From Shigella phage Sf21: a DNA stretch of 64,000 nucleotides. Both the position numbers and the translations under genes were made by a program. The DNA lies in the sequence record MF327007; one strand, written 5' to 3'. Shown here piece after piece: positions 1 through 8,392 of this stretch. Under the pieces are notes generated by a model. It saw only the letters and a program-made list of their open reading frames with translations, did no database searches and was not told the origin of the DNA. Every line of letters starts with the position of its first letter. Positions within the stretch are counted from its first letter, which is position 1.

Positions 1-170
1 AGCTCACTCCAAACTTCTGTTATATTTACTGTGCCGTCGATGTTTAAAATAAAACAGTCAATCATTAATCCAATAAGACTACCTGTAAGAGCTGCAAATG
101 CTGATATGGCAAGAATTAATAGTGCCTCTGGAAACGAATATTTGACTTTATTTAGTTTTGGCTTTTGCAT
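1..170 (-). CDS. hypothetical membrane protein, N-terminal part only (ORF runs past window start)
   Basis: ATG at 168-170 (minus) with AGGAAT 6 nt upstream; hydrophobic start MQKPKLNKVKYSFPEALLILAISAFAALTGSLIGLMI; no stop before window edge. Confidence 0.3.
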   Translation of the reverse strand, partial: MQKPKLNKVKYSFPEALLILAISAFAALTGSLIGLMIDCFILNIDGTVNITEVWSE

Positions 171-565
171 CGTGATTCCTTAACAAATTTCATAATTTCA
201 TTAAATTCATACGCAGCAAGTTTAAGCTGATGTTCCTTTTTAATCTTTTTACACTGAGCTTTCCATTCGCGTACGCGTTTACGATAGTGTCTTCCTTGAT
301 ACCAGTATCCTACCCAATTTACAGGTACTAATAAAAATGGAACTACTAATGGAAGAATTAATACTAACAGAAATACTGTGTCTGATTCAATATCAGTAGT
401 AACATCTATAACTATTCCAATAATCATTAGGATTATAAATGATACAGCTGTCACAGGACCTACTAATACATCAGTAGGAATTAGCTGGCGCTTTAATTCA
501 TACTTCAACGGTTTACTTGGAAGGTATAGTGATGGTTTTGACATATTCTCTACATTCCTTAACAA
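152..565 (-). CDS. small integral membrane protein (hypothetical)
   Basis: 137-aa ORF with two hydrophobic helices (VSFIILMIIGIVIDV; FLLVLILPLVVPFLLV); start may be internal Met MSKPSLY. Confidence 0.45.
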   Translation of the reverse strand: MLRNVENMSKPSLYLPSKPLKYELKRQLIPTDVLVGPVTAVSFIILMIIGIVIDVTTDIESDTVFLLVLILPLVVPFLLVPVNWVGYWYQGRHYRKRVREWKAQCKKIKKEHQLKLAAYEFNEIMKFVKESRCKSQN

Positions 566-1127
566 ATTTTTCTAGTAATAAATCGCTTTCAAAATTGGGA
601 TTTTCTACGAATTTATCAAAAAGATCATCAACAATAGTTAAGATATTCTTTTTACTAAGAATACGTTTATTTTCATGCTTCGTTTCAGAATCAACTATAA
701 GAGTAAAGAAATATTTCTTGCCCTGAAATTTTACCGTAGTATCAATATAGAATAAATTTGACTTTTGTAAATTACGTTTAAACCATGCATCACTTAAACT
801 ATAAACGCCAAGATAATCATAATCGTCGTTTAAATAACAAACCGTCCATTCAGGAGAAATGAAATCAGTAAATTCAACATCAAAATCACACGTCAATGAA
901 TGAATTGATTCAATACTGTTAATGAGTATTCCAGGACGTATTAAAGACTTTTTACCTTTAGAAAATCTTCCGGAAAGGCTTTCATCAGTTTCATATGAAG
1001 ACCCCCAATAGTAATTACGTCCTTCTGCCATGCGTTTAAGAGCATTTAGTAATTGGTCTGGAACATCAACCTGTCTTTGGAACTCTTCAAACATTGAATT
1101 GAAATCACTTTGCATTTTCATTTTCAT
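513..1127 (-). CDS. hypothetical protein
   Basis: 204-aa ORF downstream of hairpin 1146-1166; no motif recognised. Confidence 0.5.
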   Translation of the reverse strand: MKMKMQSDFNSMFEEFQRQVDVPDQLLNALKRMAEGRNYYWGSSYETDESLSGRFSKGKKSLIRPGILINSIESIHSLTCDFDVEFTDFISPEWTVCYLNDDYDYLGVYSLSDAWFKRNLQKSNLFYIDTTVKFQGKKYFFTLIVDSETKHENKRILSKKNILTIVDDLFDKFVENPNFESDLLLEKFVKECREYVKTITIPSK

Positions 1128-1145
1128 TCCTATTTACTCCAAGTA

Positions 1146-1166
1146 TAAGGGGCCGAAGCCCCTTAT
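1146..1166 (-). terminator. stable UUCG-tetraloop hairpin (GGGGC-UUCG-GCCCC)
   Basis: palindrome TAAGGGGCCGAAGCCCCTTA right after stop of 1169..1762. Confidence 0.55.
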
Positions 1167-1168
1167 CA

Positions 1169-1762
1169 TTATTTCAGAGAATTAATGTATTCCTGAACAT
1201 CGGCAGAGGTAGTTTCAACCCCAGAAATATTACCGTTAAAGGTTTCAACTCGAGCAAGGGTATCTTCAATATCAACCTTAGTCAGTGCTGCAATTTCAAC
1301 TACATCATCAGCAGTACTAATTCCAAGGGCATTCGCAGCACGAGTTTCACGGATATATTCCAATTTAACTGCAAGTTCTTGGCGAGCATCATCTAACTCA
1401 ACTACTTTCTTGGCGATTTCAATTCGCATTTCAGCATAACCATCAGCTTTAGTAGTCAACTGCTCAGCTGTTCGACGATATAGTAAACCAAGTTTAGCAT
1501 GCATTGTTACATCTTGACCTTCCGAAAGAAGCTTGCGAATTTCACGCTCTTTTGATTCGGCCTGCTTATTCTTTTCGACAATAAGTTCACGAATACGCTT
1601 TTCTTCATTAATAGATTTAACAGAAGCAGTTTTTAGATCTTTAATCTTATCAAGTAGTTTTGCTGCTGCAGCAGTATACTGTTCTTCAACAGATAGATTT
1701 TTAGCCATAGCAGAACCAAGTTTAGTGCGAATAAACTCAACAATTTTCTTCAGTGTGTTCAT
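1169..1762 (-). CDS. coiled-coil protein with PspA/IM30-like architecture (tentative)
   Basis: 197 aa; SD AAGGAAAT before ATG at 1760-1762; N-terminal amphipathic segment then long K/E/R-rich helical region. Confidence 0.5.
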
Positions 1763-1805
1763 AGTATTTCCTTAGGTTAATTAAGATTTAAAATCCATGA
1801 GAGTA

Positions 1806-1982
1806 TTATACTCCGGATAGTTTGTAAACTATTTCAACATCGCCTTTTGCTGCTTTATAACCTTCAGCCCAAGATACAACCGAGTTTTTATCTGAAGATT
1901 CAAATTCTGGCATTGGGCTTTCGCCAATGTTCACGCAGTATGTTTCTTCATTTTCGTCGAACCAAATAATTAAAGTAGTCAT
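1806..1982 (-). CDS. small hypothetical protein (58 aa), not in ORF track
   Basis: ATG at 1980-1982 preceded by GGAGAAATAA; translates MTTLIIWFDENEETYCVNIGESPMPEF... Confidence 0.3.
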   Translation of the reverse strand: MTTLIIWFDENEETYCVNIGESPMPEFESSDKNSVVSWAEGYKAAKGDVEIVYKLSGV

Positions 1983-2051
1983 TTATTTCTCCGTTTCTGT
2001 ATTTGTTTTTGATAAGTCTATAATAACACCGTCCTTGGTGTTTGTACACAA

Positions 2052-2327
2052 TTATTTCATATTATTGAAATATTCTTCTGCGATTTCGTCGTTATCATGG
2101 TAAACTTTAGAAGACAGTTTAACATAACCTTCTGCCGTGAACATGTTAATCACAACCTTTACAGTATACCACTGACCGTCTTCATTACCCATTACTGCGT
2201 AAGTTTCAAACATCGGATGATCAGGACCGATAACTTTAATATCATTCACTGTACGACCGAAATCTTCTGAAACACATTTCATAAAGAAGTTGAACAGTTC
2301 GCCGTAATTATCCATTTCATTCTCCAA
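2052..2327 (-). CDS. hypothetical early protein
   Basis: 91-aa ORF directly downstream of early promoter GTTTAC-N18-TACTAT at 2358-2387. Confidence 0.5.
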   Translation of the reverse strand: MENEMDNYGELFNFFMKCVSEDFGRTVNDIKVIGPDHPMFETYAVMGNEDGQWYTVKVVINMFTAEGYVKLSSKVYHDNDEIAEEYFNNMK

Positions 2328-2357
2328 ATTGTTTTCTGTATCAGTAGTTGATAGTTG

Positions 2358-2387
2358 TATAGTACCATGGAAGAACAGGGATGTAAA
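2358..2387 (-). promoter_or_regulatory. T4-type early promoter (-35 GTTTAC, 18-nt spacer, -10 TACTAT)
   Basis: minus strand reads CACAAAACTGTTTAC-N18-TACTAT with A/T-rich upstream tract; precedes ORF 2052..2327. Confidence 0.7.
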
Positions 2388-2528
2388 CAGTTTTGTGAAA
2401 AAATTTTTTAAAAAGTTTTAGGGAATTCTAGGGTCAGGAGGGACAATTAAAAGGTAGGATAATATATTATAAAGGGTATAAACTAAATGATGCCCAGAGA
2501 GGCCCGGAAAGGCCTAGATACCAAAAAG

Positions 2529-2552
2529 CCCCAACCTTTCGGCTGGGGCTAA
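2529..2552 (-). terminator. intrinsic terminator hairpin with U-run
   Basis: minus strand AGCCCCAGCCGAAAGGTTGGGGCTTTTTGG after stop of 2558..3031. Confidence 0.7.
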
Positions 2553-2557
2553 GAATG

Positions 2558-3031
2558 TTATTTGATTTGTTTAGCAGACCAAATGCGGTCTTTAATAATT
2601 TTTTGGATGTCTTCAACATATTCAAGAGAGTGAACATGTGGGTTATCTTTGAAACTATAAGCACGAGCTAGCTTTTGGCCTTCAGTTTTGATTATCAAAA
2701 GTTCTTTAAGAATTGCTTCATACCTAGAGATAATTCCTTTAGCAATATTTTTTTCTTGTGCTGCTTTAGGATCAGCCTTAGGAGCAGGTTTACCTGAAGC
2801 CTTTGCAAAAGCAGCTCCAGTAGCAACTAAACTTTTCCAAGCCATACTAACTGCATTCCCTGTAAATCCTTCGGCTTTCATATCACGAGCAAATTGGAAT
2901 CGTGATTCATCGGAAGCATCTTTATAGGAATATTTACCCGCGGCAATGGCAGCTTTTGCAACAGCTTGAATTTCAGTGCTAGATGCTTCATTTAACACCG
3001 CTTCATTTAAAAATTGAGCATATGATTTCAT
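2558..3031 (-). CDS. Lys/Ala-rich protein with internal-protein-like N-terminus (candidate packaged protein)
   Basis: 157 aa; N-terminus MKSYAQFLNE resembles T4 internal-protein capsid targeting sequence; TATAAATA late promoter 37 nt upstream; flanked by near-identical hairpins. Confidence 0.5.
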   Translation of the reverse strand: MKSYAQFLNEAVLNEASSTEIQAVAKAAIAAGKYSYKDASDESRFQFARDMKAEGFTGNAVSMAWKSLVATGAAFAKASGKPAPKADPKAAQEKNIAKGIISRYEAILKELLIIKTEGQKLARAYSFKDNPHVHSLEYVEDIQKIIKDRIWSAKQIK

Positions 3032-3067
3032 CTTATTTCCTGTTTTAATTCGTGGTTTTAATATACT

Positions 3068-3075
3068 TATTTATA
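3068..3075 (-). promoter_or_regulatory. T4 late promoter core TATAAATA
   Basis: exact TATAAATA on minus strand 37 nt upstream of ATG of 2558..3031. Confidence 0.6.
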
Positions 3076-3082
3076 CTAAAAA

Positions 3083-3106
3083 GCCCCAACCTTTCGGTCG
3101 GGGCTA
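3083..3106 (-). terminator. intrinsic terminator hairpin with U-run (near-identical copy of 2529-2552)
   Basis: minus strand AGCCCCGACCGAAAGGTTGGGGCTTTTTAG immediately upstream of late promoter. Confidence 0.65.
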
Positions 3107-3109
3107 AGC

Positions 3110-3414
3110 CTTGCGGCAACCTTGTCGGGGTTCCACCTGCTAAGGCAAGTGTTTGTACGAAACGCCGGGATTCGAACCCGGTTATTAAGCAGTTGACGCT
3201 ACTCAATATTTTTAAAAGGCCATATCTCGACCATATCCGAACGTTCCGTCAAAAACGCTACTCGGCTTACGGCAAAGATATTTCCTCGAATCGATAATTC
3301 GGTGCGCCGTTTCTGCTGTGATGTAAGAGGGCATCAATAAACGCAAAGATTATTAACGCAATTCCTTACTCAGGGAACATCAGTCCGACGACTTACCGGT
3401 AGCGACCCGGTTTC
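3110..3414 (-). ncRNA. candidate small stable RNA region with tRNA-like T-arm (unassigned)
   Basis: ~300 bp without a credible ORF next to the tRNA cluster; minus strand carries CCGGG-TTCGAAT-CCCGG at 3166-3182 with a possible 7-bp acceptor pairing, but no standard D or anticodon arm. Confidence 0.25.
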
Positions 3415-3765
3415 TTAATATTCTTTTAAAGCATCAATATGTTCACGGCGTTTACGCCATAAATCAATTGCTTCATACGCGGATTCAGCATTTCGAATTG
3501 GACGGCATTTATATAAAGATTTGTGATTTTGATATTGCGTAGATAACGGAATTTTATCTAAAAGGTCTTTACGTTCAAAGTATTCGTAACCATCTAAGCC
3601 AAATGAACGATTTTTGAGAAATTGCCAATGACCAAATTCGTTTTGAATATAAATATAATCCGCGTGTTGATAAAGTAAATTAATTTCACGAAATGAGATA
3701 TGTTTTTCATATTCATTGAAGTAAAATGTTAAATCATGAACTACTAAATAAACATTACTTTTCAT
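3415..3765 (-). CDS. hypothetical protein
   Basis: 116-aa ORF; SD GAGGAAAAT before ATG at 3763-3765, immediately downstream of tRNA-Arg. Confidence 0.5.
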   Translation of the reverse strand: MKSNVYLVVHDLTFYFNEYEKHISFREINLLYQHADYIYIQNEFGHWQFLKNRSFGLDGYEYFERKDLLDKIPLSTQYQNHKSLYKCRPIRNAESAYEAIDLWRKRREHIDALKEY

Positions 3766-3783
3766 ATTTTCCTCACTTATAAT

Positions 3784-3859
3784 TGGTCGAGGCAGTAGGG
3801 ATCGAACCTACGACCCAGGACTTAGAAGGTCCTTGCTCTTCCTTCTGAGCTATGCCCCG
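3784..3859 (-). tRNA. tRNA-Arg (anticodon UCU)
   Basis: 76-nt cloverleaf read on minus strand; anticodon loop CUUCUAA; T-arm GTAGG-TTCGATC-CCTAC; CCA encoded. Confidence 0.85.
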
Positions 3860-3863
3860 TAAT

Positions 3864-3939
3864 TGGGGTGACCGATGGGAGTCGAACCCATGACTACGAG
3901 AATCACAATCTCGAGTTCTACCAACTGAACTACGGCCAC
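3864..3939 (-). tRNA. tRNA-His (anticodon GUG), no encoded G-1
   Basis: 76 nt; anticodon loop UUGUGAU identical to E. coli tRNA-His loop; discriminator C73; base at -1 is U not G. Confidence 0.7.
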
Positions 3940-4053
3940 ATTAATACCTACTCCAACAATCAAGATGTCTTCACACGAAATTAAGAGAAGAGTGATCAGT
4001 TCAACCCCTATAATCGCGTCAAGTAGATATTAATGTGACAGTTGTCACAAATT

Positions 4054-4128
4054 TGGCGGACGTGATAGGATTCGAACCTATAACCAATCGCTTAACAGGC
4101 GATCGCTCTGCCATTGAGCTACACATCC
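4054..4128 (-). tRNA. tRNA-Asn (anticodon GUU)
   Basis: 75 nt; anticodon stem ATCGC/GCGAT, loop CUGUUAA; T-arm ATAGG-TTCGAAT-CCTAT; CCA encoded. Confidence 0.8.
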
Positions 4129-4132
4129 AAAT

Positions 4133-4219
4133 TGGTGGGGAGTGGTGGAGTCGAACCACCCGAGTCGCAATGACAATGAATTTACAGTCCACACCGCTAC
4201 CTCTACGGGATAACTCCCC
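4133..4219 (-). tRNA. tRNA-Tyr (anticodon GUA), class II with long variable arm
   Basis: 87 nt; anticodon loop CUGUAAA with G-U containing stem; T-arm GGTGG-TTCGACT-CCACC; CCA encoded. Confidence 0.7.
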
Positions 4220-4232
4220 CTAATTCTTAATT

Positions 4233-4307
4233 TGGTGGCCCTGGGTGGAATTGAACCACCATCTGGCGATTATGAGTCGCTTGCTTGAACCTTCCAGCTA
4301 CAGGGCC
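4233..4307 (-). tRNA. tRNA with CAU anticodon (T4 tRNA-Ile-like, or Met)
   Basis: 75 nt; perfect 7-bp acceptor stem GGCCCTG/CAGGGCC; anticodon loop CUCAUAA; CCA encoded. Confidence 0.75.
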
Positions 4308-4308
4308 T

Positions 4309-4384
4309 TGGTGCTGATTGACGGAATCGAACCGCCGACCTTCTCATTACAAGTGAGTTGCTCTACCTACTGAGCTAAATCAGC
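4309..4384 (-). tRNA. tRNA-Thr (anticodon UGU)
   Basis: 76 nt; anticodon loop CUUGUAA; D-arm GCTC-AGTAGGTA-GAGC; CCA encoded. Confidence 0.85.
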
Positions 4385-4389
4385 AAAAC

Positions 4390-4479
4390 TGGCGGAGGCG
4401 ATAGGATTTGAACCTATGAGTCGCCGGAGCGACTGCCGGTTTTCAAGACCGGTGCATTAAACCACTCTGCCACGCCTCC
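4390..4479 (-). tRNA. tRNA-Ser (anticodon UGA), class II
   Basis: 90 nt; anticodon stem CCGGT/ACCGG, loop CUUGAAA; long variable arm; CCA encoded. Confidence 0.85.
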
Positions 4480-4481
4480 AG

Positions 4482-4555
4482 TCTCCGCGGCAGGATTTGA
4501 ACCTACGACATTCTGCTCCCAAAGCAGACGCTCTACCAAACTGAGCTACACGGAG
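4482..4555 (-). tRNA. tRNA-Pro (anticodon UGG)
   Basis: anticodon stem TCTGC/GCAGA, loop UUUGGGA; T-loop TTCAAAT; CCA not encoded. Confidence 0.8.
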
Positions 4556-4565
4556 TAAATTAAAT

Positions 4566-4639
<74 letters not shown>

Positions 4640-4644
4640 AAATT

Positions 4645-4731
4645 TGGTGCGAGAAGTGGGACTCGAACCCACAAGGAAATCATTCCGCAGCATTTTAAGT
4701 GCTGTGCCTTTACCAATTTGACCATTCTCGC
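4645..4731 (-). tRNA. tRNA-Leu (anticodon UAA), class II
   Basis: 87 nt; anticodon stem CAGCA/TGCTG, loop CUUAAAA; long variable arm; CCA encoded. Confidence 0.85.
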
Positions 4732-4732
4732 G

Positions 4733-4805
4733 CTGGGAATAAAGGACTCGAACCTTTGCATCTAGCAGTCAAAGTGCTATGCCTTACCAACTTGGCTAAT
4801 TCCCA
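4733..4805 (-). tRNA. tRNA-Gln (anticodon UUG)
   Basis: 73 nt; anticodon stem TAGCA/TGCTA, loop CUUUGAC; CCA not encoded; abuts tRNA-Leu. Confidence 0.85.
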
Positions 4806-4891
4806 ATTATTAACAAAGGCTCTCAAACAAGAACCCTTGATGATAGAGGGTATTAATCAGTGCGGTATGAGTTAATAATAACAAATAATTC

Positions 4892-5407
4892 TTAAAGCAA
4901 ATTAAACATTTTAACGGTCGGCAAAACAATTTCTTCTTCTATATAAGAGTATTTAACACTCTCAACTACACGCAAAAAATCATAATCATAATACTCAGAA
5001 GCATTACCTAAAATATTAATAAGTCCTTCAAGCACTTTATTACCATTCACAAAGAATAAGTCAAATACGCGTTCTTCGTCTTCTTCGGATTTATTACCAA
5101 GGTCAACTTCTATATCAAAGACCTTTTTAATGAATTCTGGATAAAGTTGTTCTGAGAACAGTCCTTCAACCAAGTATTCATAAATAAAAAGCGATTGCTC
5201 GCTGAACAAGCCATTACCACAATAACGTTCAGCTTTAGTACTAGAATGTCTACTTTTAAACTTCTTTAAAAGATATTGAAATTGTAAGATTTCATGCTCT
5301 TCTACGCCAAACAGTGTTTTAGTTTTATAGTTGTCACCATCATTTTCCCAGGTAGTGACATCAATTACGTAACCCTGTGGAATTGTAGTACCTAAACAAA
5401 TATTCAT
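4892..5407 (-). CDS. hypothetical early protein
   Basis: 171-aa ORF, first of four translationally coupled (ATGA-overlap) minus-strand ORFs. Confidence 0.55.
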   Translation of the reverse strand: MNICLGTTIPQGYVIDVTTWENDGDNYKTKTLFGVEEHEILQFQYLLKKFKSRHSSTKAERYCGNGLFSEQSLFIYEYLVEGLFSEQLYPEFIKKVFDIEVDLGNKSEEDEERVFDLFFVNGNKVLEGLINILGNASEYYDYDFLRVVESVKYSYIEEEIVLPTVKMFNLL

Positions 5408-5703
5408 TTGCTCACCATATTAATGTAAGTATATTCAATACATTCAAGACCCAAAGGATTCTTGAAAATATCATATTCAAGAGGACCTTTTTCCGTTTCA
5501 ATAAAGAAATCAAAATTTACTGTATTAAATTTACGGTCTTCCTTCACTAATTTAACTTGTGAAGATGAACGGTCAATGTAAACCTTTTCAACTTCAAAAC
5601 ATGTTAAAATGCCATAATCATCAATCAAGGCTTTAGCTGCTTCTTGATCATATTTATATCCATTTTCAATGGATGATACTTTAGCATAAAGAATCATTAT
5701 CAA
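5404..5703 (-). CDS. hypothetical protein
   Basis: 99-aa ORF overlapping neighbours by 4 nt. Confidence 0.5.
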   Translation of the reverse strand: MIMILYAKVSSIENGYKYDQEAAKALIDDYGILTCFEVEKVYIDRSSSQVKLVKEDRKFNTVNFDFFIETEKGPLEYDIFKNPLGLECIEYTYINMVSK

Positions 5704-6098
5704 CCTTCATCAACAACAGTATGCGTATTGGCATTTACGATTTGCCACCAATCAAAGCGATTAGAATCCATCGGTTTGTTTTCATTTTCTTTGATAATGT
5801 CACGGAGTTCATCTTCAGAGAATGCTTTAGCAATTAAATCGGTATACCCACCACGGGGATAATAATTATCACCTGCAAACAAAAGGAAATTTACCTTCCC
5901 GGAAGGAACATACGCTTCCTTAGGATACTTGTTTCCTGCGTGGTCAACCACTTCAATATAACGGTAAGGAATATCGGTTCTTTCAACCCATTGCCATGCC
6001 GCTGCAGGGGAATCGAAAGCATCTACACCTAAACGATTATCTTCATCTTTAGACGGATTATTTTCGTAATCCGCATATACATAATATTCAACGTTCAT
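5700..6098 (-). CDS. hypothetical protein
   Basis: 132-aa ORF overlapping neighbours. Confidence 0.5.
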   Translation of the reverse strand: MNVEYYVYADYENNPSKDEDNRLGVDAFDSPAAAWQWVERTDIPYRYIEVVDHAGNKYPKEAYVPSGKVNFLLFAGDNYYPRGGYTDLIAKAFSEDELRDIIKENENKPMDSNRFDWWQIVNANTHTVVDEG

Positions 6099-6283
6099 TA
6101 TTCACCTTTAGAAATTTTATCCATAACAATAGCAATTAAACCAATTAAAAATGCTACTACAAGTGAAAAAACATTTTCTGCCGTAGTCAATAATCCGCAT
6201 ATAAATCCAACAAACATTGAAAAACTGAAAGCGGAAGCAGAAATTGCAATAGCAACATTTCGAATTAATTCACAACGTTTCAT
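6098..6283 (-). CDS. small membrane protein (61 aa)
   Basis: ATG at 6281-6283 with AGGAGAATAAA SD; hydrophobic core FSFSMFVGFICGLLT...LVVAFLIGLIAIV; ORF-track start at 6424 is upstream of the promoter and unlikely. Confidence 0.5.
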   Translation of the reverse strand: MKRCELIRNVAIAISASAFSFSMFVGFICGLLTTAENVFSLVVAFLIGLIAIVMDKISKGE

Positions 6284-6311
6284 TTTATTCTCCTCAGTAG
6301 TTGATAGGGTA

Positions 6312-6341
6312 ATAGTATCACTACCCCATCTAAAAGTAAAC
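6312..6341 (-). promoter_or_regulatory. T4-type early promoter (conserved module copy)
   Basis: GTTTAC-N18-TACTAT; precedes 6098..6283. Confidence 0.7.
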
Positions 6342-6575
6342 TTATTTTTTACGAAAAATTGATTTATTTTCTGCTGCCCATTTTTCAATAACTGCAGCAG
6401 GACCAGTAACAACAATTTTATCACCGTAATCTTCTGCGGCGAGTTGACCGAAATTATCTAATGCATCACGAAGAACTCCATGAGGCATTTCACCCATTTT
6501 ATCTTTCTTGCCAGTGTAAATAAACTCAACTTTTACATCAGCAGTTTCAGCAATAAATTCTTGGTAAGTTTTCAT
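6342..6575 (-). CDS. virion internal protein (IP family) with capsid targeting sequence MKTYQEFIAE
   Basis: N-terminus matches the T4 internal-protein capsid targeting sequence; own early promoter at 6610-6639; start taken at second ATG. Confidence 0.65.
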   Translation of the reverse strand: MKTYQEFIAETADVKVEFIYTGKKDKMGEMPHGVLRDALDNFGQLAAEDYGDKIVVTGPAAVIEKWAAENKSIFRKK

Positions 6576-6609
6576 TTTGATTTCCATTTGGTTTTGTTTT
6601 GATAGGGTA

Positions 6610-6639
6610 ATAGTATCACAACTAAAACCCTATGTAAAC
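6610..6639 (-). promoter_or_regulatory. T4-type early promoter (conserved module copy)
   Basis: AATTTCACAAAGTTGTTTAC-N18-TACTAT; precedes IP gene 6342..6575. Confidence 0.75.
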
Positions 6640-6651
6640 AACTTTGTGAAA

Positions 6652-6909
6652 TTATTTTAAATCTTCTAATCGTTTTTTCATCTTAGAACCATTTTTAGCA
6701 ATTTCTCCTGCATCGGAGCATAATGCTAAAAGTGCTTTAACTTTCGTTTGGTCTCCTTTAAAAGATGAAGGATCTACTGCAGCAGCAAGTTCTTTAATAC
6801 GAGAGAAAAGACGCTCAGCTTCAGCTAAAGCCATTCCAAGCTTTACTTCCATACCGTGGGAAGATTCAGTGATAGTAGTTTTTGTAGTAAACTCTTTGAA
6901 AGTTTTCAT
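6652..6909 (-). CDS. virion internal protein (IP family), ipI-position gene
   Basis: N-terminus MKTFKEFTTK...TE is capsid-targeting-like; SD AGGAAAAT; own early promoter at 6940-6969; adjacent to 57B as ipI is in T4. Confidence 0.6.
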   Translation of the reverse strand: MKTFKEFTTKTTITESSHGMEVKLGMALAEAERLFSRIKELAAAVDPSSFKGDQTKVKALLALCSDAGEIAKNGSKMKKRLEDLK

Positions 6910-6939
6910 TTTATTTTCCTAATTAATTTTGATGAGATA

Positions 6940-6969
6940 ATAGTATCACTACCTCATCAGCATGTAAAC
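6940..6969 (-). promoter_or_regulatory. T4-type early promoter (conserved module copy)
   Basis: AATTTCACAAAGTTGTTTAC-N18-TACTAT; precedes IP gene 6652..6909. Confidence 0.75.
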
Positions 6970-6981
6970 AACTTTGTGAAA

Positions 6982-7666
<685 letters not shown>

Positions 7667-7667
<1 letters not shown>

Positions 7668-8392
7668 TATAGTACCTTTAGTGTATTTTTAATTTTAGAA
7701 AAAAGTTCTTCAAGAGAACCATCGTTTGTAATTACTAAATCGCCATCACGAATTGGCAATCCAGCTTCTGTAATATGTGTATCATTGGATTTTTGACCAG
7801 GACGAACTACATGAATTACTGTAGCACCCATCGCCCTAGCCGCATCCATTTCATGATCTTGACGGGTATCAGGAACGATATAATAATCATAACCTGAGTT
7901 AAATTTATCAAGATAATCTAAAGCAAATAATTTTACCCAGTACATGCGGTCGAAGTTATTAACAATCAAATCCGTACCTAGGGCTTGCATCAGACGACGG
8001 ACTGACCATTGATCTTCAATATTATTTATAACGTCAGTAATTTTGTTAAATGCTACGAAATTAACTGATTCTTTTCCTTCGTCATCAAAAACAAACACAC
8101 CCTTAATTGGGCTTTTACCATTAAGATAGCAAAATGCTTGTTCCATAATCGTGATTACTTCTAATTTAGTCAGATTTAAATTAGTCTCACGATCATAGTC
8201 AATTCCTTCAAACTCTTTACGAGTTAAGCAAGGATAGTCGGTGTTTGCTGCAAATACTCCCCATGCATAAGCCAATGCATCCTTAATAGGACCAGCAAGT
8301 TGGTATTTAACTGCAGAATAATTGCTCATGATAAAATCAGCAGTAGTATCTTTTCCACTACGCTTTACACCGCTTAAAAAGATTAGTTTCAT
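7667..8392 (-). CDS. 1: deoxynucleoside monophosphate kinase (gene 1)
   Basis: 241 aa from ATG at 8390-8392 (SD GAGGAG); P-loop GVKRSGKDT. Confidence 0.85.

Follow-up and report, generated by a model that had tools for sequence, protein, structure and literature searches.

A putative late-gene cassette bounded by repeated terminator hairpins at the rnaC/e.8 site of Tequatrovirus phages

A 64,000-nucleotide (nt) stretch of the genome of Shigella phage Sf21 (sequence record MF327007; hereafter the window), a T4-like phage of the genus Tequatrovirus, carries a single gene of 157 amino acids (aa), here called gene A, between two near-identical hairpins at the site between rnaC and e.8. We posit that gene and hairpins together probably form a self-contained, transcriptionally insulated late-gene cassette which codes for a leader-bearing protein resembling the internal proteins (Ip) of T-even phages, and which is exchanged at the terminator repeats. 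The cassette interval is read on the minus strand, the coding strand of this and every other local gene, and the surrounding segment (2300-3450) matches 768 phage records, with 99.7-99.8% identity to phages LF82-9 and teqskov. An earlier reading of the window, made from the sequence only, had described a single gene bracketed by repeats, and this was confirmed: the open reading frame (ORF) runs from 3031 to 2558 and its product begins MKSYAQFLNE.

Repeated terminators and the states of the rnaC/e.8 site

The repeats are two 31-mers at 2523-2553 (hairpin L) and 3078-3108 (hairpin R), direct repeats 555 base pairs (bp) apart which differ at two bases. The difference is the CT/TC swap described in the sequence-only reading, through which an A-U pair and a G.U pair trade places while both stems stay fully paired. 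Read on the minus strand, the hairpin CUUAGCCCC(GA/AG)CCGAAAGGUUGGGGCUUUUU consists of a 10-bp GC-rich stem and a GAAA tetraloop followed by U5, with free energies of -20.3 and -20.8 kcal/mol for the two copies (z = -3.6 and -3.9), and these are the top two terminator-like sites in window 1-8000. No T-run follows either hairpin on the plus strand. Consistent with their initial description as terminators, which minus-strand folding and the scan ranks uphold, both are predicted intrinsic terminators acting on minus-strand transcription. By self-BLAST, the repeated segment is 36 nt long (2518-2553 versus 3073-3108, 33/36 identical); the identity reaches past the functional stem, with CTTAG on the 5′ side and GTAT on the 3′ side, and the right copy overlaps the first three bases of the T4-type late promoter motif TATAAATA. 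A third copy of the 31-mer was not found in the 64-kb window at up to three mismatches or up to eight substitutions, and in a control none of 100 shuffles gave two matches.

Hairpin R (minus strand) would terminate the tRNA-rnaD-rnaC unit and marks the upstream cassette boundary. Its direct-repeat copy, hairpin L (minus strand), starts four bases past the gene A stop codon, would terminate gene A and marks the downstream boundary. Hairpin R has its orthologue in the one hairpin that T4 possesses at this site (locus L003, 6331-6361), from which it differs at one of 31 positions and with which it shares its place after the conserved rnaC 3′ flank. In T4 the rnaC terminator is single and the e.8 upstream region lies directly next to it, whereas in the window the terminator is duplicated and encloses a gene; more specifically, a single hairpin directly connects the e.8-upstream DNA of T4 with the rnaC 3′ flank, which equals the window minus a 555-bp unit. 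The T4 hairpin combines the stem of the right copy (GACC) with the trailing bases of the left copy (GGTAT), and such a mixed hairpin would be the expected leftover of a crossover in the hairpin 3′ half. As a separate observation, the downstream hairpin of phage KAW1E185 (locus L002, 1723-1753) pairs perfectly in an AACC/GGTT stem and carries its loop inverted (TTTC for GAAA), a pattern typical of a hairpin flip or of template switching.

A comparison of cassette presence and absence across T4-like genomes, as the sequence-only reading had suggested, found the breakpoints in the hairpins. Locus states were read from a spread sample of 728 matching records, junctions were counted across 50,697 phage records by 81-nt queries with a coverage of 80% or more, and seven loci with the rnaC flank came from IMG/VR. 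The site is empty (one hairpin, no gene) in T4, T2, T6, RB10, RB59 and F2, with a 415-bp span, and also in PST. Gene A alone, the commonest state, appears as a contiguous 971-nt match. Phages RB14, Shfl2 and FL23, and Pu-Krd-SF7 too, carry only a different cargo of ~680 bp, here called gene B, and gene A is followed by gene B in JB75, HP3, OE5505, ime09, KRT47 and others (~1650-bp span), as well as in TH09. A two-piece match in TH09, considered as a third cassette between A and B, is the ordinary A+B arrangement. In OE5505 (locus L015) both genes are interrupted, with ORFs of 36 aa and 106 aa running from the leaders, which could reflect cassette decay or sequencing errors.

Homology ends at query positions 194 and 746-749, corresponding to window 2523 and 3075-3078, the edges of the hairpin T-runs, and no Tequatrovirus state examined has its breakpoints anywhere but at the hairpin T-run. 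At the joints, read on the transcribed strand, hairpin-TTTTT is followed by (A/G)GTATAAATA where A starts and by AGTTTGAATC where B starts, and TTTTT is followed by GGTATCTAGG at the e.8 upstream region; all four combinations of the junction strings for A, B and the e.8-upstream region exist. In approximate counts, in which laboratory T4 derivatives are over-represented, the junction of A, hairpin and e.8-upstream region occurs in 334 records (a figure that may include some Mosigvirus), that of A, hairpin and B in 129, and the empty junction in 80. The gene A protein is found in any context in 510 records and the gene B protein in 165, and subtracting the A-hairpin-B junctions from the latter gives an estimate of ~36 records with B only. 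A direct query of rnaC, hairpin and B was rejected for this count as unspecific, since coverage of positions 1-65 already reaches the 80% threshold.

Gene B codes for 187 aa beginning MKTYAEFLTE, has an ATAAATA motif upstream and possesses its own terminator (CCCTATC-taaat-GATAGGGCTTTTT), different from the hairpin. Genes A and B both match phrog_2280 and were considered as paralogues; BLASTP and hhalign align the 10-residue leader only, and a relationship beyond it is not supported. Mosigvirus PNJ-6 has TATAAATA directly after the T-run and then a third leader-bearing ORF, MYTFNEFLAE followed by T. This ORF (locus L017, 1584-1970) is apparently cut short at a poly-A run, and the frame downstream resembles the C-terminal part of the Klebsiella/Yersinia homologues (TPDLY...), which hints at domain shuffling in this protein group. 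At the rnaC terminator of IMG/VR locus L007 lie TATAAATA, an ORF for a predicted membrane protein of 184 aa and a separate terminator; locus L010 shows the exact empty version, with its junction at GGGCTTTTTTATA. Four or more unrelated cargos start exactly at the common T-run/TATAAATA junction.

Late promoter, leader and candidate packaging of gene A

The T4-type late promoter motif TATAAATA (3068..3075, minus strand) lies 2 nt after the T-run of hairpin R, which ends at 3078, with 36 nt between its own 3′ end and the ATG of gene A at 3031. A Shine-Dalgarno sequence, AGGAAA, read from the sequence at 3036..3041 on the same strand, precedes this ATG by 4 nt. For the late promoter proposed in the sequence-only reading, the exact motif and its conserved position hold up, whereas the motif count equals chance, and the assignment therefore rests on position and conservation. 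The junction CTTTTT(A/G)GTATAAATA recurs in JB75, TH09 and Klebsiella phage KpV477.

Gene A (2558..3031, minus strand; phrog_2280, function unknown) codes for a candidate internal protein with a predicted all-helical structure, as seen also in its AlphaFold model (pLDDT 76.8). It matches no Pfam or NCBIfam family, and its homologues are only hypothetical proteins of T4-like phages. The internal-protein-like N-terminus noticed at first sight is borne out by the match of MKSYAQFLNE to the leader of T4 IPII/IPIII and by its retention in every homologue. Codons 1-10 (3002..3031, minus strand) encode this capsid-targeting-like leader, which ends in an L-x-E of prohead-protease type. The corresponding leaders read MKTYQEFIAE in T4 IPII and IPIII, MKTYQEFITE in PST IpIV and MKTYAEFLTE in gene B, each followed, as in gene A, by an alanine; five of the ten residues are identical between gene A and IPII/IPIII, and the substitutions are mostly conservative. 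The (L/I)-x-E motif is present at L8-N9-E10 before A11 and again at L13-N14-E15 before A16, both predicted cleavage motifs of gp21. Tequatrovirus gene A contains here (residues 1-15, window 2987-3031) a five-residue duplication, LNEAV-LNEAS, which is absent in the Mosigvirus/Dhakavirus orthologues and doubles the putative prohead-protease motif L-x-E.

The leader pattern, M-K-(T/S)-(Y/F)-x-(E/Q)-F-(L/I)-x-E, is found in all A homologues (Tequatrovirus, Mosigvirus, Dhakavirus, Klebsiella and Yersinia phages), with varying residues after it, and also in the neighbouring genes B and C, the rest of whose proteins is different. Within the 64-kb window two ORFs carry the pattern, gene A and the annotated Ip gene at 6575..6342. 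The latter, an internal virion protein gene (6342..6575, minus strand; phrog_8111, MKTYQEFIAET...), occupies the classical ipI position. Its longest ORF (6342-6587, minus strand) begins four codons upstream of the leader methionine and is preceded by an early-type promoter, TTTACA-17-TACTAT (6638..6610), not by TATAAATA.

A homologue of gene A has been recorded in a particle proteome. Yersinia phage fD1 (phiD1, NC_027353/HE956711) encodes g140 (157 aa, 67942-68415), 96% identical to the gene A protein, and g140 is marked PPAP at the strict threshold and as being without a T4 homologue (PMC8309999, Table S3). This detection is consistent with packaging, as weak evidence that is not decisive. 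By analogy with the T-even internal proteins, we regard the gene A product as a candidate internal protein which would be packaged in the head and injected, and which would most likely act as an inhibitor of a host defence. GmrSD type IV restriction enzymes are inhibited by Ip1, Ip2 and Ip3, each of which targets a different one (2025 study, PMC12373910), and this provides a concrete functional hypothesis for both A and B.

Several points weaken the case for the predicted late expression, packaging and function. Counts of TATAAATA on the window's minus strand show no enrichment (8 observed versus ~6.8 expected), the corresponding motif reads AATAAATA in Mosigvirus and Dhakavirus, and gene B has AATAAATA or GATAAATA. 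A structure search with the gene A model gave no PDB match better than E = 1.4, and hence no fold-based function. The fD1 proteome is noisy: it assigns 113-137 of 277 products to the particles, thymidine kinase, DenV and NudE among them, and the particle preparation also contained 672 host proteins (PMC8309999). The gene A product could alternatively be a cytoplasmic late protein that works within the infected cell and is not packaged, with a leader likeness owed to short-motif ancestry or to chance. The many non-structural enzymes in the fD1 particle-associated list would fit such a protein, as would the limited leader identity to MKTYQEFIAE (5/10 residues) and a position away from both Ip loci of the literature. 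We nevertheless consider this unlikely, because the leader pattern persists in all homologues, drawn from four genera, and in B and C, neighbours that are unrelated; because the one other ORF with the pattern in 64 kb is an annotated Ip gene; and because packaging would fit both the putative late promoter and the PPAP call at the strict threshold.

Age of gene A and exchange at the hairpins

The position of gene A is shared across genera, namely Tequatrovirus, Mosigvirus, Dhakavirus and Jiaodavirus. Mosigvirus AlbertHofmann has the stem GCCCCTTCC...GGTTGGGGC in the two hairpins that flank the gene, the loops being GAAA and TTAC. Dhakavirus IME341 has the upstream hairpin, then a different short terminator right after gene A, and a third related hairpin ~100 bp further on with a compensatory GGCCC...GGGCC change. 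In Jiaodavirus KpV477 (locus L005, 2425-3020) the terminator before the A homologue has a different stem and the junction CTTTTTAGTATAAATA is identical. The KpV477 homologue contains an in-frame TAA, its record giving two short coding sequences, and may be a pseudogene or reflect a sequencing error. Between the window and Mosigvirus, protein identity is 80% for gene A, compared with 88% for e.6, 68% for the 116-aa ORF and 45% for e.5.

As gene A has the same site in several genera and an identity within its neighbours' range, it is most simply viewed as an old resident of the site, and the empty T4 state as a loss. The sequence-only reading had proposed a shuffled cassette. What stands of this proposal are the joints at the hairpins and the A, B, A+B and empty alleles; what does not is movement from place to place, the gene appearing instead as an old resident that was repeatedly lost or recombined. 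The ipIV gene of PST, also of 157 aa, was considered as a copy of gene A at another locus, which would prove mobility, and was rejected when BLASTP found no similarity.

The distribution of the gene also holds evidence unfavourable to exchange at the hairpins. Gene A was never found at another locus, each record having it in one place, and with this single locus and a divergence like that of its neighbours, horizontal movement is not demonstrated. The sequence-only reading had tied the gene to its flanking repeats; KpV477 and, in part, IME341 carry it without an immediately flanking repeat, and the repeat is therefore not obligatory. Mosigvirus EP32a lost gene A by a deletion from the T-run to the Shine-Dalgarno sequence of the next gene, the right end of which is outside the hairpin, so that hairpin homology on both sides is not used in every event. 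The hairpin and the B terminator have only ~14 nt (GGGCTTTTTGGTAT) in common.

On a competing explanation, gene A is ancestral and subject to ordinary deletions, the terminators are the ends of adjacent transcription units, the T4-type loss happened once via the repeat, and the A/B patterns arose from homologous recombination in the flanks and not at the hairpins. This would account for a locus common to Tequatrovirus, Mosigvirus, Dhakavirus and Jiaodavirus, for an identity to Mosigvirus (80%) within the neighbour range (e.6 88%, 116-aa ORF 68%), for one copy per record, for the EP32a deletion with no hairpin on one side, and for the KpV477 gene without repeated hairpins. We judge it improbable all the same, because T-run breakpoints occur in every Tequatrovirus state examined, the four junction combinations exist, at least four unrelated cargos begin at one T-run/TATAAATA junction, and the repeat identity continues past the functional stem (CTTAG 5′, GTAT 3′). 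Further evidence against it comes from stem variants which are lineage-specific and common to both copies, with GACC/AGCC for Tequatrovirus and TTCC for both Mosigvirus and Dhakavirus. In an IMG/VR genome (locus L013, IMGVR_UViG_2938479101_000005) the variants are swapped relative to the window, with AGCC upstream and GACC downstream of gene A, which suggests exchange between hairpin copies. The shared lineage-specific stems, this swap and the identity beyond the stem together argue that the two copies exchange sequence and have not converged. Convergence of two strong terminators with GC stems and GNRA loops under selection for termination efficiency is disfavoured and very improbable: both hairpins are canonical terminators, and differences between copies and between lineages keep base pairing (e.g. 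GGCCC...GGGCC in IME341), but the copies agree at 33/36 positions, some of them beyond the stem and T-run, shuffling yielded the repeat in 0 of 100 trials, and other regional terminators (that of B, and one at window 1145-1166) are quite different in sequence.

For the insulated late cassette exchanged at its terminators, which remains our preferred reading, we hypothesise the following course, its transcription and packaging steps being drawn from sequence and analogy, and its recombination steps and their direction from the junction patterns. The early/middle tRNA-rnaD-rnaC transcript would stop at hairpin R, and the late promoter TATAAATA, two bases on, would start a short mRNA for the 157-aa protein that would in turn stop at hairpin L, with the e.8 early promoter coming next. 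A late start at TATAAATA and a stop at hairpin L would thereby insulate gene A from its early neighbours. The protein would be made late and, by analogy with Ip1-3, its leader would carry it into the prohead scaffold core, where the gp21 prohead protease may trim it after LNE, at E10 and/or E15; the trimmed protein would stay in the head and be injected with the DNA. The very active T4 recombination system may cross over between the 31-36-bp direct repeats, an event that would remove the gene and reduce the pair to a single hairpin, as in T4, T2 and T6. Campbell-type reinsertion of the excised circle, or exchange with a co-infecting phage, could add or swap cassettes, and through deletion on the one hand and insertion or exchange on the other the site would come to hold none, A, B or A+B, joined at the hairpin. 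T4-type recombination needs only small patches of homology of <50 bp (PMC2839356, citing Singer et al. 1982).

The site is probably a third internal-protein locus, built of terminator-bounded late cassettes and empty in T4, T2 and T6. We advance more tentatively, as possible but doubtful in its full extent, the wider proposal that the rnaC terminator is a third Ip locus of the Tevenvirinae, at which late-promoter cassettes are exchanged by terminator recombination and where cargos A, B and the PNJ-6 type are injected defence inhibitors, for example of GmrSD-type enzymes. Part of this tentative proposal is that the site is filled in most sequenced Tequatrovirus genomes and has been overlooked because it is empty in T4, T2 and T6. 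Since all three T4 internal proteins inhibit GmrSD enzymes (PMC12373910), every further leader-bearing protein is a concrete anti-defence candidate. The site supplies at least three leader-bearing candidates, all annotated as hypothetical proteins, which are present in hundreds of phages, some of them isolated for therapy or biocontrol, and absent from the model phages. In addition, gene gain and loss with direct-repeat terminators as the joints can be seen here in an unusually clean natural form.

Genome setting and comparison with known systems

In transcription order, the region consists of 11 tRNA genes, the 116-aa ORF, rnaD, rnaC, the cassette, e.8, a 58-aa ORF, e.6 and e.5, all on the minus strand. 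The tRNA cluster (4805..3784) has 11 genes versus 8 in T4, the extras being His, Asn and Tyr, and its tRNA with a CAU anticodon is called Met here and annotated as Ile in T4. The 114-nt gap between tRNA-His and tRNA-Asn (3940-4053) gave no Rfam or ARAGORN match. Between rnaD and tRNA-Arg, which are directly adjacent in T4 with segB beyond tRNA-Arg, the window has the 116-aa ORF (3765..3415; phrog_3355, function unknown), whose stop codon abuts or overlaps the rnaD 5′ end. The genes for rnaD (species 2 stable RNA, ~3301..3418) and rnaC (species 1 stable RNA, ~3156..3294) were placed by alignment from the T4 and Aplg8 annotations; both are nearly identical to their T4 counterparts and well conserved in Mosigvirus. 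Rfam searches by gathering score and by E-value returned tRNAs only, with no family for the hairpins, rnaC or rnaD. On the downstream side, a promoter of sigma-70/T4-early type (TTTACA-17-TACTAT with TG, 2359..2387, minus strand) lies ~135 nt from hairpin L and precedes the e.8 homologue (2052..2327, minus strand), the next gene after the cassette.

Gene A resembles the T-even Ip genes (T4 Ip1/IPI, Ip2/IPII and Ip3/IPIII; PST IpIV-VI), known for their polymorphic loci (Repoila et al. 1994; Bair et al. 2007), in several respects. Both are of a small, non-essential gene type on the early-gene strand, and both have a leader of ~10 residues ending in (L/I)-x-E and a late-type promoter, in gene A a putative one. 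As with the T-even Ip genes, A and B vary by presence, absence and replacement among close relatives, with unrelated mature sequences behind a shared leader. Their positions differ, gene A being located between rnaC and e.8, whereas T4 ipI lies between trna.4 and 57B and ipII/ipIII between denV and e. Gene A is thus in neither described Ip locus, a criterion of positional convention and not of function. Its leader is a variant of the Ip leader (S3, A5, Q6, L8, N9), and in the records examined, unlike the named Ip, it is annotated as a hypothetical protein, to which we ascribe packaging, processing and injection as predictions. The Ip ORFs themselves are reportedly flanked 5′ and 3′ by homologous regulatory sequences, which Repoila et al. 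in 1994 are said to have proposed as mediators of shuffling.

The second comparison is with the PeSLs (promoter-early stem-loops), and the PmSLs (promoter-middle stem-loops), of T4-type phages (Arbiol et al. 2010; Comeau et al. 2014), stem-loop/promoter cassettes which mediate indels and form mini-circles and which their authors link to the earlier polymorphic Ip loci of Repoila et al. 1994 (PMC2839356, PMC4122927). In these elements as in the cassette, a terminator stem-loop is joined to a promoter and single accessory ORFs are flanked by such units, which lie at indel or replacement breakpoints of close relatives and insulate the inserted gene transcriptionally, in the cassette by prediction; homologous recombination between the repeated elements is proposed for both. 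The differences are equally specific. A PeSL has a sigma-70-like early promoter directly downstream of its stem-loop, whereas hairpin R leads to the late motif TATAAATA and hairpin L has an early-type promoter only ~135 nt away. PeSLs exist as many dispersed, near-identical copies in hyperplastic regions, in contrast to the two copies of the hairpin in 64 kb even at 8 substitutions. PeSL crossovers were mapped in the AT-rich/promoter segment, whereas in the cassette the homology is the terminator itself.

The literature searched yielded neither the late-promoter form of the cassette ('late promoter' has 0 occurrences in Arbiol et al. 2010, PMC2839356) nor the rnaC/e.8 site as an Ip locus (the 2025 paper speaks of 'the two Ip loci', PMC12373910), nor a naming of A or B as internal proteins, which the records examined call hypothetical. 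The principle is known, from PeSL cassettes and polymorphic Ip loci.

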